This document shows, piece by piece, positions 50,815 to 56,213 of a stretch of 64,000 bases of DNA (the stretch's first letter is position 1; each line of letters opens with the position of its first letter). The position numbers and the translations under genes are program-made. The stretch is from NCBI RefSeq assembly GCF_053078305.1, contig NZ_CP166879.1, one strand, 5' to 3'. Below the pieces are notes generated by a model. It ran no database searches and was not told the DNA's origin. It saw nothing but the letters and a program-made list of their open reading frames with translations.

Positions 50815-52503
50815 TTGCAATTTGACTACATCATTATTGGTGCCGGCTCAGCCGGCAACGTTCTCGCTACCCGTCTGACTGAAGATCCGAATACCTCCGT
50901 GCTGCTGCTTGAAGCGGGCGGCCCGGACTATCGCTTTGACTTCCGCACCCAGATGCCCGCTGCCCTGGCATTCCCGCTACAGGGTAAACGCTACAACTGG
51001 GCTTACGAGACGGAACCTGAACCGTTTATGAATAACCGTCGCATGGAGTGCGGACGCGGTAAAGGCCTGGGTGGATCGTCGCTGATCAACGGCATGTGCT
51101 ACATCCGTGGCAACGCGATGGATCTCGACAACTGGGCAAAAGAACCCGGTCTGGAGAACTGGAGCTATCTCGATTGCCTGCCCTACTACCGCAAGGCCGA
51201 GACCCGCGACGTGGGCGAGAACGACTACCACGGCGGCGACGGCCTGGTGAGCGTCACCACCTCCAAACCCGGCGTCAATCCGCTGTTTGAAGCGATGATT
51301 GAAGCGGGCGTGCAGGCGGGCTACCCGCGCACGGACGATCTCAACGGTTATCAGCAGGAAGGTTTTGGTCCGATGGATCGCACCGTCACGCCGCAGGGCC
51401 GTCGCGCCAGCACCGCGCGTGGCTATCTCGATCAGGCCAAATCGCGTCCTAACCTGACCATTCGTACTCACGCTATGACCGATCACATCATTTTTGACGG
51501 CAAACGCGCGGTGGGCGTCGAGTGGCAGGAAGGCGACAGCACCATTCCAACCCGCGCGACAGCGAATAAAGAGGTGCTGTTATGTGCAGGTGCGATCGCC
51601 TCTCCGCAGATCCTGCAACGTTCCGGCGTGGGTAGCGCTGAACTGCTGGCGGAGTTTGATATTCCGCTGGTGCATGATTTACCCGGCGTCGGCGAAAATC
51701 TTCAGGATCACCTGGAGATGTACCTGCAATATGAGTGCAAAGAACCGGTTTCCCTCTACCCTGCCCTGCAGTGGTGGAATCAGCCGAAAATCGGTGCGGA
51801 GTGGCTGTTTGGCGGCACCGGCGTTGGTGCCAGCAACCACTTTGAAGCAGGCGGATTTATTCGCAGCCGAGAGGAATTTGCGTGGCCGAATATTCAGTAC
51901 CATTTCCTGCCAGTAGCGATTAACTATAACGGCTCGAATGCAGTGAAAGAGCACGGCTTCCAGTGCCACGTCGGATCGATGCGCTCGCCAAGCCGTGGGC
52001 ATGTGCGGATTAAATCCCGCGACCCGCACCAGCATCCGGCGATTCTGTTTAACTACATGTCGCACGAGCAGGACTGGCAGGAGTTCCGCGACGCAATTCG
52101 CATCACCCGCGAGATCATGCATCAACCGGCGCTGGATCAGTATCGTGGCCGCGAAATCAGCCCCGGCACGGAATGTCAGACGGATGAGCAGCTCGATGAG
52201 TTCGTGCGTAATCACGCCGAAACCGCGTTTCATCCGTGCGGTACCTGCAAAATGGGCTACGACGAGATGTCCGTGGTTGACGGCGAAGGCCGCGTGCATG
52301 GGCTGGAAGGCCTGCGCGTGGTGGATGCGTCAATTATACCGCAGATTATCACCGGGAATTTGAACGCCACGACAATTATGATTGGCGAGAAAATAGCGGA
52401 CATGATTCGTGGACAGGAAGCGTTGCCGAGGAGCACGGCGGGATATTTTGTGGCAAATGGGATGCCGGTGAGAGCGAAAAAAATGAGTCGTGATTTGAAC
52501 TGA
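50815..52503 (+). CDS. betA: Choline dehydrogenase (GMC oxidoreductase)
   Basis: ...[23 protein letters not shown]...; AGGAGG at 50804-50809 positions a TTG codon at 50815; the in-frame ATG at 50770 lies inside betB. Confidence 0.93.
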
Positions 52504-53569
52504 CTCAAGAACCGATCAGATTGAGAGTTACCGTTCCAGGTATGGGGACAGAATCGTTATATAAAACATAGGGGTAACTCTCATGCTTCATAGTGACAAC
52601 CTCGCCAGCAAATTCTAAGCGGACTCGTTCAATCTGGCTGATGAAGGTGCTATGAATGCACTGATAAACCGCAGGTGAAATGCCACTCAGCTTAAGAATT
52701 ACGCCGCTAATGTTCCTTGCTATGGTTACCTGTTCATTCCCGCTCACGGTTAGCATGTACGAAAAGGGTTCTTGTAACGAGTACAAAAATAAGTCAGACC
52801 AAAACCACATGGAGCTTTAAACACGGTTCGTATAATTTATTAGCAGCGATTTATTTTTACTCTTCTTTAATTAATCATCATGCTTAAATATTTTTTAGCA
52901 CAAGATTATCGCTTCGCTAACATTTTATTTTACATTCATCATCAATTGATAATAAAAAATTGTTAATAATTTATTGCAAAAAACAAAAAGTGTTGGAATA
53001 CTCTCCATCAAATGAATACATAATAAACAAATTGAGATATACAAAAAGTAAAAACCATTTAAATGAATATTTTTAATTTATGAGCAGAACCCATTAACAA
53101 TGATTTACTAACCACCAGAAAAGTAAAGAACACCTTGCAATAATATGTATTTATAAATTCATATCATTGATATTAAACCAATCTTACTTTCTACCCTCCA
53201 ACTTTATGCATCAAAAAAAACAAAAGTAAAATCAATTAGATACACAACAAGGCAATCTCACAGGAAATGATGTTAAATATCTCAAAACTAATAAAAAATT
53301 ACTAAAATATTAGACGTAACACACATCCCACACGACCTGTCACTCATAGTTTTAATATTTATTTTTTCACATCATAGTAGATAAAAATACGCATTAAAAA
53401 TGACTTGTAGAAAAGCTGCACAATAAATAGTTCATATTTAGTCTGTTGCGTAGAACTACTATTCAAAAAATCTTATTAATGAGATAATGAGATTACATCG
53501 ATAACGTTCTGATGGCAGGCATACTTATCTGGGTGTGCCTCTCTTTTTTACAACTGTACACGGTGGCGT

Positions 53570-54133
53570 ATGACGAGAAAATATCTCACACAGGATGAAG
53601 TCTACAGGCTGATGGATGCAGCCCAGAGCATGTCCTTTCCTGAAAGAAATCGCTGTCTAATTATGATGGCTTTCATTCACGGTTTTAGGGCCAGTGAACT
53701 TCTTGATTTACGTTTATCCGATATTGATGCATCAGGAAAACAACTTAATATTCGGCGTATTAAAAATGGTTTCTCGACGACACATCCTCTTCTTCCTGAT
53801 GAATATAATTTGATCAAGTTGTGGCTTAAGCAGAGGAAGTTAATTGAAAACGGAGTTGAAGGAGACTGGCTTTTTCTCTCCCGGAAACGCCGCCCTATCA
53901 GCAGACAACATTTTTTTTCTATCATTCGTGAGGCTGGAAAACGTGCAGGATTAGCTGTAAAAGCACATCCTCATATGTTACGTCATGCCTGTGGTTTTGC
54001 TCTGGCTGACAATGGTGTCGATACCCGACTACTCCAGGATTATCTGGGTCATCGAAATATCCAGCATACTGTCAGATACACAGCCAGTAATGCTGCTCGA
54101 TTTAAAGGGGTGTGGAAAAAAAAACCTCGTTAA
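53570..54133 (+). CDS. FimB/FimE-family tyrosine site-specific recombinase
   Basis: 187 aa; strong similarity to remembered FimB/FimE blocks (FIHGFRASE, FSTTHPLL, HPHMLRHACGFALADNGVDTRLLQDYLGHRNIQHTVRYTASNAARF); preceded by ~760 bp of AT-rich ORF-free DNA. Possibly ipuA-like. Confidence 0.88.
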   Translation: MTRKYLTQDEVYRLMDAAQSMSFPERNRCLIMMAFIHGFRASELLDLRLSDIDASGKQLNIRRIKNGFSTTHPLLPDEYNLIKLWLKQRKLIENGVEGDWLFLSRKRRPISRQHFFSIIREAGKRAGLAVKAHPHMLRHACGFALADNGVDTRLLQDYLGHRNIQHTVRYTASNAARFKGVWKKKPR

Positions 54134-54145
54134 AACAGTACCTTC

Positions 54146-54423
54146 TGATTCAAAATGTCAGATTCCTACGTTTTCCTCAATTCTTCCATAAAAAAACAGC
54201 CCATTCAATTAAATAAAACACATAACATGTTGATATTTCTCGCTAAAGTAAAATAACCCCATGATTTGAAATGATTAACCACCAAGGTCATACCAGTGAT
54301 TAACTTTCGCTCATATTGTTAAATAACACAAAATTAAAAACAATAAAAATCAAACAAATTAGATTTATATTCCAAGAAAATTAAATATTCAGGCTATTAA
54401 ACCAAACCTGACATTTTGAATCA
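54146..54423. promoter_or_regulatory. Candidate invertible DNA switch (fimS-like) bounded by 16-bp perfect inverted repeats
   Basis: TGATTCAAAATGTCAG at 54146-54161 and its exact reverse complement CTGACATTTTGAATCA at 54408-54423, flanking 246 bp of AT-rich DNA between the recombinase and the LuxR-type regulator. Confidence 0.65.
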
Positions 54424-54462
54424 AAATGTCAGGTTTTGTAGCAATGGCGTGGACGAGTCTGA

Positions 54463-55257
54463 ATGAAGAAGCCTCTGGTTATTATCAGTGCCTGTCAGTT
54501 CACCAGGCTGGCACTGGAGTCTCTCATCCCAGCGGACAGGTATATCGTGCGGGTGTACAGCAACGTCACTACAGAGGTTGAATTCGTTTTAAAAACCTCC
54601 TGTGGCTACCTGTTGGCTGATATCCCTTCGCTTCCTTCGGGGGAGTTAGTTCTTCTGGCTTGTCTTGTCCGCTTGCGGAGTGATGCCGGGCAATGGCAGG
54701 TCTGCCTGACCGGTGACTCCGACTGGTCCGATAATGCTCCTGCTGCAAGTCTGTATAACGGCTTCCCACATATCGGCACCATGCTGACAGCGAGTCGTTA
54801 TCAGAATCAAATTATCCGCTGGTTACTACGTCCTTTACCCGGCGATATGAGTGATTTCTGGCTCCTGACTGCACGGGAGTTAAGCGTGCTTAAGATTCTG
54901 ATGCAGGGCATGAGTTTCAGTGAGATTGCCCGTTATGAACAACGCAGTTCAAAGACCCTGCATGCGATTGCCACACGGGCTTTAATGAAACTTGGACTGG
55001 GAACACTGAGCGATTTCAGGCTGCTCTATACGGGATGCGGTGACAGCAGAGTGAAACGGAATATACGGCTACATGCAAAATATATCGGACAACATTCCGC
55101 TCATCGACTCACTCAGTATGTGCAGAACATGGTATCCGGAATCCTTTATCCAGAGAAAGTTGCCGTTGGTGAATCAATAAATTCTGACGCCATTTCCGGA
55201 AAAGTACTTTCCGGACAAAGAAAAAATATATCTAAAAAAAGACCAGGATTGTTATGA
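54463..55257 (+). CDS. LuxR-type HTH transcriptional regulator
   Basis: 264 aa; HTH LTARELSVLKILMQGMSFSEIARYEQRSSKTLHAIATRALMKLG; starts 40 bp after the right inverted repeat. Possibly ipuR-like. Confidence 0.8.
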   Translation: MKKPLVIISACQFTRLALESLIPADRYIVRVYSNVTTEVEFVLKTSCGYLLADIPSLPSGELVLLACLVRLRSDAGQWQVCLTGDSDWSDNAPAASLYNGFPHIGTMLTASRYQNQIIRWLLRPLPGDMSDFWLLTARELSVLKILMQGMSFSEIARYEQRSSKTLHAIATRALMKLGLGTLSDFRLLYTGCGDSRVKRNIRLHAKYIGQHSAHRLTQYVQNMVSGILYPEKVAVGESINSDAISGKVLSGQRKNISKKRPGLL

Positions 55258-55410
55258 CACAGCAGCGTTGTTACTACCACCCACTGCGGCGCATACGGAC
55301 TCGCTACAGTGTAGGAGCCAAAATATTTCTACTGTTCTGGGCTGCAGGATTGGGAGGCACGCTGTACAGCCTGTACAGCGTGCTGGCGTACTGACATCTG
55401 TGAGGGAAGG

Positions 55411-56172
55411 ATGCGTTTCGTTCTTTTCTGTCCCTCAGGAATTGTACCAGCGCAGTTCGCAGCTCTATCAACCGGTTCTGTCGGCAATGTTACCTGCATC
55501 AGAACAGAAGAGGAGTTACGCAATAAATTGCGGCACAGGCCACAGAATGTCGTGATATCGGCAGGGCGACCTGCCGAATGCGCTGAAATGTGGTTCCGAT
55601 TTTATCGGGATCACTCATTCGTGGTGGTGTTGTGCGTCGCGCCCTTTTTTCTGCCACCGGATGTGAGTATTTCTGGCGTTCTCAAAAACCTGAGGTTACT
55701 GAAACCAGGAATGTCAGTAGAGCATGTCATCAGTATTGCAAATACCTCTGGTGGGTTTTCAGGGCTGAAACATGCAGAAATTTTGCCAGTTATGGACAGT
55801 TACTCTGTCTTTATGAAAGAGGTGAATAACCGCACAAAGACAATCGTCATGTCAGAACGCTTCCCGGAAAAGCAAAAGAAGGTGTTGTCGTTGCTTCTTG
55901 CCGGACACAGCTGGGAATACAGTGCGCAGTTTCTCAAAACGGGGATAAGACAGATATGGCTTGCCGAGCAGTCGCTAAAAAAGCGTTGGGGAATACCGGA
56001 CAGCATGTCATTGCGGGAAGCCCTGCTGCTGAGCAGCAATAAATTTCACGGTGATGGAAATGCATTGGAAAAAACGAATGCCATGACATTGCGTGAAAAC
56101 GGAAATACCAACAGGTATTCCGTGGTGGTAAATGCAGGGACGCAGGTTTTATCTCTGCATAAATATAAATAA
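55411..56172 (+). CDS. Second, divergent LuxR-like regulator
   Basis: 253 aa; degenerate LuxR-type HTH near the C-terminus (EKQKKVLSLLLAGHSWEYSAQFLKTGIRQIWLAEQSLKKRWGIP); no intact response-regulator phosphoacceptor signature recognised. Confidence 0.6.
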   Translation: MRFVLFCPSGIVPAQFAALSTGSVGNVTCIRTEEELRNKLRHRPQNVVISAGRPAECAEMWFRFYRDHSFVVVLCVAPFFLPPDVSISGVLKNLRLLKPGMSVEHVISIANTSGGFSGLKHAEILPVMDSYSVFMKEVNNRTKTIVMSERFPEKQKKVLSLLLAGHSWEYSAQFLKTGIRQIWLAEQSLKKRWGIPDSMSLREALLLSSNKFHGDGNALEKTNAMTLRENGNTNRYSVVVNAGTQVLSLHKYK

Positions 56173-56213
56173 GTGGGAAATTGAAATTAGTTACCAGAAT
56201 GGAGAATTTCTTC

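Follow-up and report, generated by a model that had tools for sequence, protein, structure and literature searches.

HyxA, encoded by the phase-variable island PAI-X of Escherichia coli, is predicted to combine an aspartate-less receiver-like domain with a divergent but conserved LuxR-type helix-turn-helix

The E. coli gene hyxA is named and annotated, and a serum-resistance and O-antigen phenotype has been published for it. TraDIS in the ST131 strain EC958 identified both hyxA (EC958_0460) and hyxR (EC958_0461) as serum-resistance genes (Phan et al., 2013; PMC3789825). The EC958 hyxA mutant displayed more short and fewer very long O-antigen chains, and its survival in serum was about 3 logs lower. 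The hyxR mutant shifted O-antigen chain length in the same direction, the effect of the hyxA mutation was stronger than that of the hyxR mutation, and the LPS patterns of complemented strains were displayed too (PMC3789825). In the 2013 literature hyxA carried 'no functional prediction', and the Salmonella T1-antigen paper labels hyxA and hyxR as 'putative transcriptional regulators' (PMC11294581). In that paper STM0718 is reported as 39% identical to HyxA, and no role in making the T1 antigen of Salmonella was apparent for either STM0717 or STM0718 (PMC11294581).

Two described systems resemble PAI-X in layout. The first is ipuR-upaE of strain CFT073 with its switch ipuS (PMC6083910), a phase-variable cassette that, like PAI-X, combines a LuxR-type regulator and an autotransporter with an invertible promoter and a Fim-like recombinase. 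However, it occupies another chromosomal locus (ipuA/ipuB) and is a two-gene operon with one regulator. The second comprises the T1-antigen-type loci of Salmonella, which have a FimB/FimX-like recombinase and an invertible switch upstream and, as in PAI-X, the same small ORF before the HyxA homologue; in contrast to PAI-X, they lack HyxR, and their cargo is polysaccharide biosynthesis and ABC-transporter genes instead of an autotransporter. The hyxS switch of PAI-X itself has been described (PMC6083910; PMC11294581).

We analyzed a window of 64,000 nucleotides from contig NZ_CP166879.1 (assembly GCF_053078305.1), in which a first-pass annotation, made from the letters alone, had placed a second, degenerate LuxR-like ORF between a LuxR-type regulator and an autotransporter. 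That ORF is present exactly where it was placed, and it is the known gene hyxA of the pathogenicity island PAI-X (fimX/ipbA, hyxS, hyxR, hyxA, hyxB/upaB; Table 1). The operon to which the first-pass annotation referred, with one regulator plus the autotransporter, is ipuR-upaE (PMC6083910), whereas the window holds fimX-hyxRAB (PMC3789825), where hyxB is called upaB. The product of fimX matched the NCBIfam 'tyrosine-type DNA invertase' model NF007370 with 251.6 bits (cutoff 221), and residues 135-181 of HyxR matched the Pfam GerE/LuxR-type helix-turn-helix (HTH) PF00196 with E = 3.9e-6. A Shine-Dalgarno-like GAGGG motif lies 4 nt 5' of the hyxA ATG. A consensus scan placed a terminator-like site after hyxB and none in the gaps that separate hyxR, the small ORF, hyxA and hyxB from one another, consistent with a single transcription unit. 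hyxA and hyxR are probably co-transcribed, and the position of hyxA suggests that it is part of the unit controlled by hyxS and FimX.

Table 1. Features of the PAI-X region, with positions numbered from the first letter of the window
Feature	Coordinates	Strand	Size	Evidence or remark
betA-fimX spacer	52504..53569		1.07 kb	
fimX / ipbA / hbiF, FimB-like tyrosine DNA invertase	53570..54133	+	187 aa	NCBIfam NF007370; RefSeq orthologue ipbA
hyxS invertible switch region	54149..54432			inverted repeats found and read directly in the sequence
hyxS, left site	54149..54161			TTCAAAATGTCAG
hyxS, inverted copy	54408..54419			CTGACATTTTGA
hyxS, further direct copy	54421..54432			TCAAAATGTCAG
hyxR, LuxR-family regulator	54463..55257	+	264 aa	Pfam GerE PF00196; RefSeq hyxR
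small ORF	55254..55394	+	46 codons	conserved upstream of HyxA homologues
hyxA	55411..56172	+	253 aa	ATG start; TAA stop 56170-56172
hyxB / upaB, outer-membrane autotransporter	56214..58511	+	765-776 aa	TIGR01414 E = 1.9e-68; RefSeq hyxB
terminator-like hairpin and T-run, 3' of hyxB	58589..58617	+		consensus scan only
ykgH	58695..59363			

The identity of the island was evaluated by a megablast search of positions 52400-58700 against 5426 complete E. coli genomes. Full-length matches to the 6.3-kb island reached at most 97.9% identity; in these genomes betA, ipbA, hyxR, hyxA, hyxB and ykgH are annotated, and ipbA carries the RefSeq remark 'also known as HbiF and FimX'. hyxA alone was matched in 1894 of the 5426 genomes at 97-99.6% DNA identity, with at least 80% coverage in 1853 of these carriers (~98%). 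The gene order also agreed, with hyxA following fimX/ipbA and hyxR and preceding hyxB/upaB in the betA-ykgH interval. RefSeq names the product 'protein HyxA' (hyxA) in all sampled genomes, and the exact window protein is public under this name; the suggestion that the ORF might be unannotated therefore fell, and it is instead the already characterised gene that the first-pass annotation had also allowed for. HyxA is 96-99% identical to the proteins P0001, P0002 and P0005, and HyxA of UTI89 and EC958 is the same gene at the same position (96-99.6% identity to the window). A few substitutions, all outside the HTH and none of them material, separate the window allele from that of UTI89.

Several features of the surrounding DNA were also observed. 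The best whole-island identity was 97.9%, yet hyxA alone reached 99.6% in a different strain (FDAARGOS_944), so the island in the window appears to be mosaic. PAI-X is flanked by betA on one side and ykgH on the other; G+C content is 32% in the betA-fimX spacer and 37% in ykgH, against 57% in betA, and the low G+C of the spacer and ykgH appears to mark the borders of a horizontally acquired island. The fimX-hyxR spacer (330 bp) is AT-rich and contains inverted repeats; at the right end of hyxS the left site (TCAAAATGTCAG) recurs twice, once inverted and once in direct orientation. hyxS has the same orientation in the window as in UTI89, EDL933 and HS, and a consensus promoter scan of both of its strands found no convincing sigma-70 promoter. 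Two of the fetched genomes, 19AR0254 and FDAARGOS_944, lack exactly the 271 bp that the direct copies enclose, which leaves fimX 58 nt from hyxR; their junctions lie at L005 1451-1570 and L006 115-234. In an even sample of 60 E. coli genomes, about 3 show this switch-less junction. As read from these junctions, the hyxS switch is excised by precise deletion in some strains.

HyxA was invisible to every sequence-based search for LuxR-like or receiver domains. HyxA and ten family members gave no Pfam match even at E <= 10, PF00196 included, and an NCBIfam scan of HyxA gave none either; a PDB sequence-profile search returned nothing relevant, with a chance match to eS24 (E = 0.46). Since no sequence profile recognises the HyxA HTH, the description of this domain as 'degenerate' holds in that sense. 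The family itself is small. HMMER, run exhaustively over 1.84 billion cluster representatives, yielded only about eight genuine HyxA-family clusters, at 27-54% identity, after exclusion of repeat proteins (P0049, P0051) and frameshifted gene calls (P0029-31, P0040, P0044), and a word-indexed homologue search with the family alignment found no further distant members. A scan of genome contigs recovered only two real loci, in Escherichia sp. MOD1-EC7003 and S. enterica diarizonae; a third match, in a Chloroflexi contig, was spurious. The homologues are equal in length, and their alignment contains 17 invariant positions.

The fold of HyxA was predicted by structure modelling. The AlphaFold model, built from a 10-sequence alignment, has a mean pLDDT of 76, which rises above 90 over residues 131-200. 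Residues 3-116 form five strands alternating with five helices, a (beta/alpha)5 CheY-like arrangement that defines a receiver-like domain (1-116). A low-confidence variable linker, a long helix (131-148) and a four-helix HTH (153-205; helices 153-163, 168-175, 179-193 and 201-205) follow, and the tail (208-253) is unstructured, of low confidence and non-conserved. When the model was compared with the PDB by Foldseek, the top 30 or so matches were almost all full-length NarL/FixJ-type regulators (E 3e-5 to 2e-3, 206-228 columns), including FixJ 5xt2, VraR 4gvp, RcsB 6eo3/5vxn/5w43, StyR 1yio, ChrA, DesR and LiaR. In AFDB50, the nearest matches after HyxA and the STM0718-type Salmonella proteins were uncharacterised enterobacterial proteins, 'HTH luxR-type domain-containing' proteins and SprB. 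The two-domain LuxR/NarL/FixJ-type architecture proposed in the first-pass annotation thus held at the level of the predicted fold, although this assignment rests on one AlphaFold model from ten sequences.

The phosphorylation site of a receiver is missing from this model, in agreement with the first reading of the letters. Strand beta3 (residues 47-51) is followed by A51/G52 at the place of the phosphoacceptor Asp; across eight members of the family, the first of these residues is A, T, H, V, P, I or Y and the second G or E, and Asp never occurs there. The family shares a conserved G-R-P motif at this would-be phosphoacceptor site. After beta1, HyxA has C7-P8-S9, with no conserved acidic residue in the family, so that the acidic pair is absent, and the Thr/Ser position after beta4 is Ala (A77). 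The Lys after beta5 (K98) is kept in seven of the eight members and aligns with K109 of RcsB. The N-terminal domain of HyxA is therefore best described, as modelled, as aspartate-less and receiver-like. Compared with RcsB, FixJ, VraR, StyR and NarL, HyxA is predicted to have the same receiver fold, linker helix, four-helix HTH and Lys after beta5, but it lacks the phosphoacceptor Asp, the acidic pair and the Thr/Ser after beta4, carries an additional non-conserved tail of 46 residues, shares only 8-17% identity with these regulators, and falls below every Pfam and NCBIfam threshold.

The phosphorylation-independent or atypical response regulators HP1043 (2hqr), RitR (5u8k) and VpsT (3kln), together with enterobacterial LuxR-type regulators such as SprB, were also among the structural matches. 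They share with HyxA the concept of a receiver-like scaffold without phosphotransfer, but no sequence relationship, and the output domains of HP1043 and RitR belong to a family other than that of HyxA. No c-di-GMP-like ligand could be inferred for HyxA.

We considered whether the fold prediction is misleading, in which case HyxA would be a cytoplasmic protein other than a transcription factor that acts on LPS indirectly. The uniformly negative sequence-based searches, the AlphaFold alignment of ten sequences only and the inconsistent UniProt names of the Salmonella homologues ('Transport protein', 'Putative cytoplasmic protein') would all suit such a protein. However, the pLDDT of the HTH exceeds 90, and an hhalign comparison of the HyxA family with E. 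coli RcsB, used as a register consistency check only (E = 0.04, probability 1.3%, 108 columns), matched the structural superposition, also at the conserved Lys. In that alignment beta4 lies on beta4 (A77 on T87), LLK98PG on VLK109QG and HyxA residues 150-183 on the RcsB HTH; the identity of the RcsB sequence had been confirmed against PDB 5vxn (456.8 bits). We regard a misleading fold as improbable.

The conservation of HyxA was evaluated within E. coli and across the family. All eight full-length E. coli hyxA alleles fetched were intact, one of them (L005) with a single in-frame codon deletion, so the frameshifts or stops expected of a pseudogene did not appear among them. As a separate observation, disrupted hyxA copies occur in a few genomes, for example through an IS3 insertion in strain C325. 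Pairwise dN/dS was 0.37 for hyxA, compared with 0.24 for hyxR, 0.47 for hyxB and 0.03 for fimX. Codons 140-207, which cover the HTH, contained 6 synonymous and 0 nonsynonymous segregating sites within E. coli, whereas the rest of hyxA contained 12 synonymous and 21 nonsynonymous sites (Fisher p = 0.0057). In the N-terminal domain, 15 polymorphisms were nonsynonymous and 8 synonymous, and so many nonsynonymous changes indicated weak constraint on this domain. Across the family, the mean major-residue fraction was 0.65 in the HTH, 0.49 in the receiver-like domain and 0.19 in the tail. L159, L163, E169, A172, G178, R180, Q181, E186, L189, R192 and P196, all within the HTH, are invariant, and R180, Q181 and W183 of the putative recognition helix lie in the most conserved region of the protein. 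These patterns show that the HTH is under purifying selection and that 'degenerate' is better read as divergent but conserved: the domain escapes sequence profiles, but with its predicted four-helix fold it is the best-conserved part of the family and is not decaying.

These data also bear on the proposal that the ORF is a decaying hyxR duplicate, or a pseudogene still open by chance. Its position beside a LuxR-type gene, the failure of every profile HMM to recognise its product and the relaxed polymorphism of its N-terminal half are what a decaying copy would show. The intact alleles, the coverage of at least 80% in ~98% of carriers, the retention of length and of 17 invariant residues in homologues at 27-54% identity, the dN/dS of 0.37 and the absence of nonsynonymous sites from the HTH argue against decay, as does the published phenotype of a complemented mutant (PMC3789825). 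Similarity to HyxR was moreover undetectable. BLASTP of HyxA against HyxR gave a best E of 0.28, which is not significant, and hhalign of the two families gave E = 0.24 over 17 columns with a probability of ~1%. These columns cover the opening HTH helices of the two proteins (HyxR 141-157 on HyxA 157-173). Therefore, although HyxR and HyxA share an operon and their HTHs align in the same register, HyxA is not a recent duplicate, and the term 'paralogue' has no detectable similarity behind it. The conservation data and the published phenotype refute the decaying-duplicate reading, to which we attach almost no credence. An AlphaFold model of HyxR was poor (five sequences, pLDDT 46) and gave no usable N-terminal fold; at candidate receiver positions, HyxR keeps an invariant Asp (D53) and Thr (T83).

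Our preferred reading, to which we assign a probability of roughly 0.8, is that hyxA encodes a functional protein of NarL/FixJ (LuxR-type) architecture, with an aspartate-less receiver that retains K98 and a divergent, conserved HTH, and that this protein would act as a phosphorylation-independent DNA-binding regulator. The identity, annotation, conservation and selection of hyxA, the predicted fold and the mutant phenotype are documented here or in published work, whereas DNA binding, phosphorylation independence and the targets of HyxA are inferred. The LuxR-type HTH would bind DNA, probably with HyxA either dimerised or paired with another FixJ/NarL-type protein. The abundance of HyxA, governed by which way the hyxS promoter switch points, would set its activity in place of a histidine kinase; a protein partner may also contribute. 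Its known output is O-antigen chain length and serum resistance.

RcsB heterodimerises with receiver-defective partners, namely RcsA, BglJ, MatA/EcpR, DctR and GadE, and contributes to wzz control in Salmonella. Because of these heterodimers and this role, a route from RcsB and HyxA to O-antigen chain length would be plausible by analogy. In an alternative reading, HyxA is an auxiliary or anti-activator subunit that heterodimerises with HyxR or RcsB and alters the activity or specificity of its partner, as the partners named above do with RcsB, without being an autonomous DNA-binding factor. Such a role would suit an aspartate-less receiver-like domain with no obvious signal input, a gene co-encoded and probably co-transcribed with hyxR, the presence of RcsB among the best structural matches, and the finding that hyxA and hyxR mutants shift O-antigen chain length the same way (PMC3789825). 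However, an HTH that is the most conserved part of the protein, with R180, Q181 and W183, is unexpected for a purely sequestering protein, although it would still be compatible with an auxiliary role in which HyxA touches DNA as one half of a heterodimer.

The dependence of HyxA on HyxR was assessed from loci in which hyxR is dead or absent. In EDL933 (E. coli O157:H7, L002, NZ_CP124740.1 1548200-1553961), hyxA and the small ORF are intact amid pseudogenes: ipbA is frameshifted, codon 56 of hyxR is a stop, hyxB is truncated and ykgH is interrupted by a stop. In FDAARGOS_944, IS2 splits hyxR and hyxA is intact, and the Salmonella T1-antigen-type loci (L014, L020) carry a HyxA homologue without HyxR. 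The O157:H7 clone is young, and the intactness of hyxA there may only reflect that, which weakens the pseudogene argument. The retention of hyxA where hyxR is dead or absent, taken with the stronger hyxA phenotype, argues that HyxA needs no HyxR. Both observations count against an auxiliary subunit with HyxR as its obligate partner, but not against one that pairs with RcsB; overall, we consider an auxiliary role unlikely, though more credible than a misleading fold, and retain the DNA-binding regulator as the preferred reading.

The small ORF upstream of hyxA (MTQQRCYYHPLRRIRTRYSVGAKIFLLFWAAGLGGTLYSLYSVLAY) was found to be tightly coupled to it. Its ATG overlaps the hyxR stop codon (ATGA), and 16 nt separate its end from the hyxA ATG; the product is basic at the N-terminus, contains the motif RYSxGAKIF and has a single hydrophobic helix. 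The ORF was intact in 9/9 E. coli loci. Homologues with a basic N-terminus, the motif RYSxGA(K/R)IF and a hydrophobic helix lie 1-20 nt 5' of HyxA homologues at seven further loci (L010, L011, L014, L015, L018, L019 and L020), in Escherichia sp., S. enterica diarizonae and several metagenomic loci, and they are present at HyxR-less loci too; the small ORF is absent from L012 and from L016/L017. In public databases it is a 'hypothetical protein', with RefSeq annotation in some genomes only. Its within-species dN/dS of ~1 comes from very few sites, and we count it as a gene because of its conservation across genera.

The genes that accompany HyxA elsewhere were also compared. STM0718 of the Salmonella T1-antigen locus, P0038 and the proteins of L014 and L020 are true HyxA homologues (~37-40% identity). 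At L014 the homologue is followed by a galactofuranose, glycosyltransferase and ABC-transporter cluster, and L020, an S. enterica diarizonae contig with the small ORF and the HyxA homologue, is too short to show its cargo. Three metagenomic loci (L010, L011, L015) have a recombinase or HyxR-like gene, a HyxA-like gene and then an autotransporter-like gene. A CaiF/GrlA-type regulator gene lies 3' of the HyxA-family gene at L012, and a secreted coiled-coil-like protein follows it at L016. This variety of cargo suggests that HyxA-family genes form a portable regulatory cassette for surface structures.

A bolder proposal, which we offer tentatively and think doubtful, is that the conserved unit is not hyxR-hyxA but the small ORF together with hyxA, a portable two-gene module in which a putative membrane-anchored peptide would replace the histidine kinase as input. 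If this is true, control would run, in one direction or the other, between a small membrane protein and a receiver/LuxR-type factor that lacks the aspartate. Behind Fim-like switches in Escherichia and Salmonella, such a module would couple phase variation to surface structures, namely the autotransporter HyxB, the T1 polysaccharide and the O-antigen with its chain length.

To the published name and phenotype of hyxA, this analysis adds a fold-level assignment of its product, which looks like a LuxR-type HTH, under clear purifying selection, linked to an aspartate-less receiver. It further adds the evolutionary independence of HyxA from HyxR, hyxA being kept where hyxR is dead or absent, and a conserved, rarely annotated small ORF that closely accompanies hyxA in both Escherichia and Salmonella. 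Moreover, it provides hypotheses on how a phase-variable island may change LPS and the resistance to complement of ExPEC lineages, ST131 among them.
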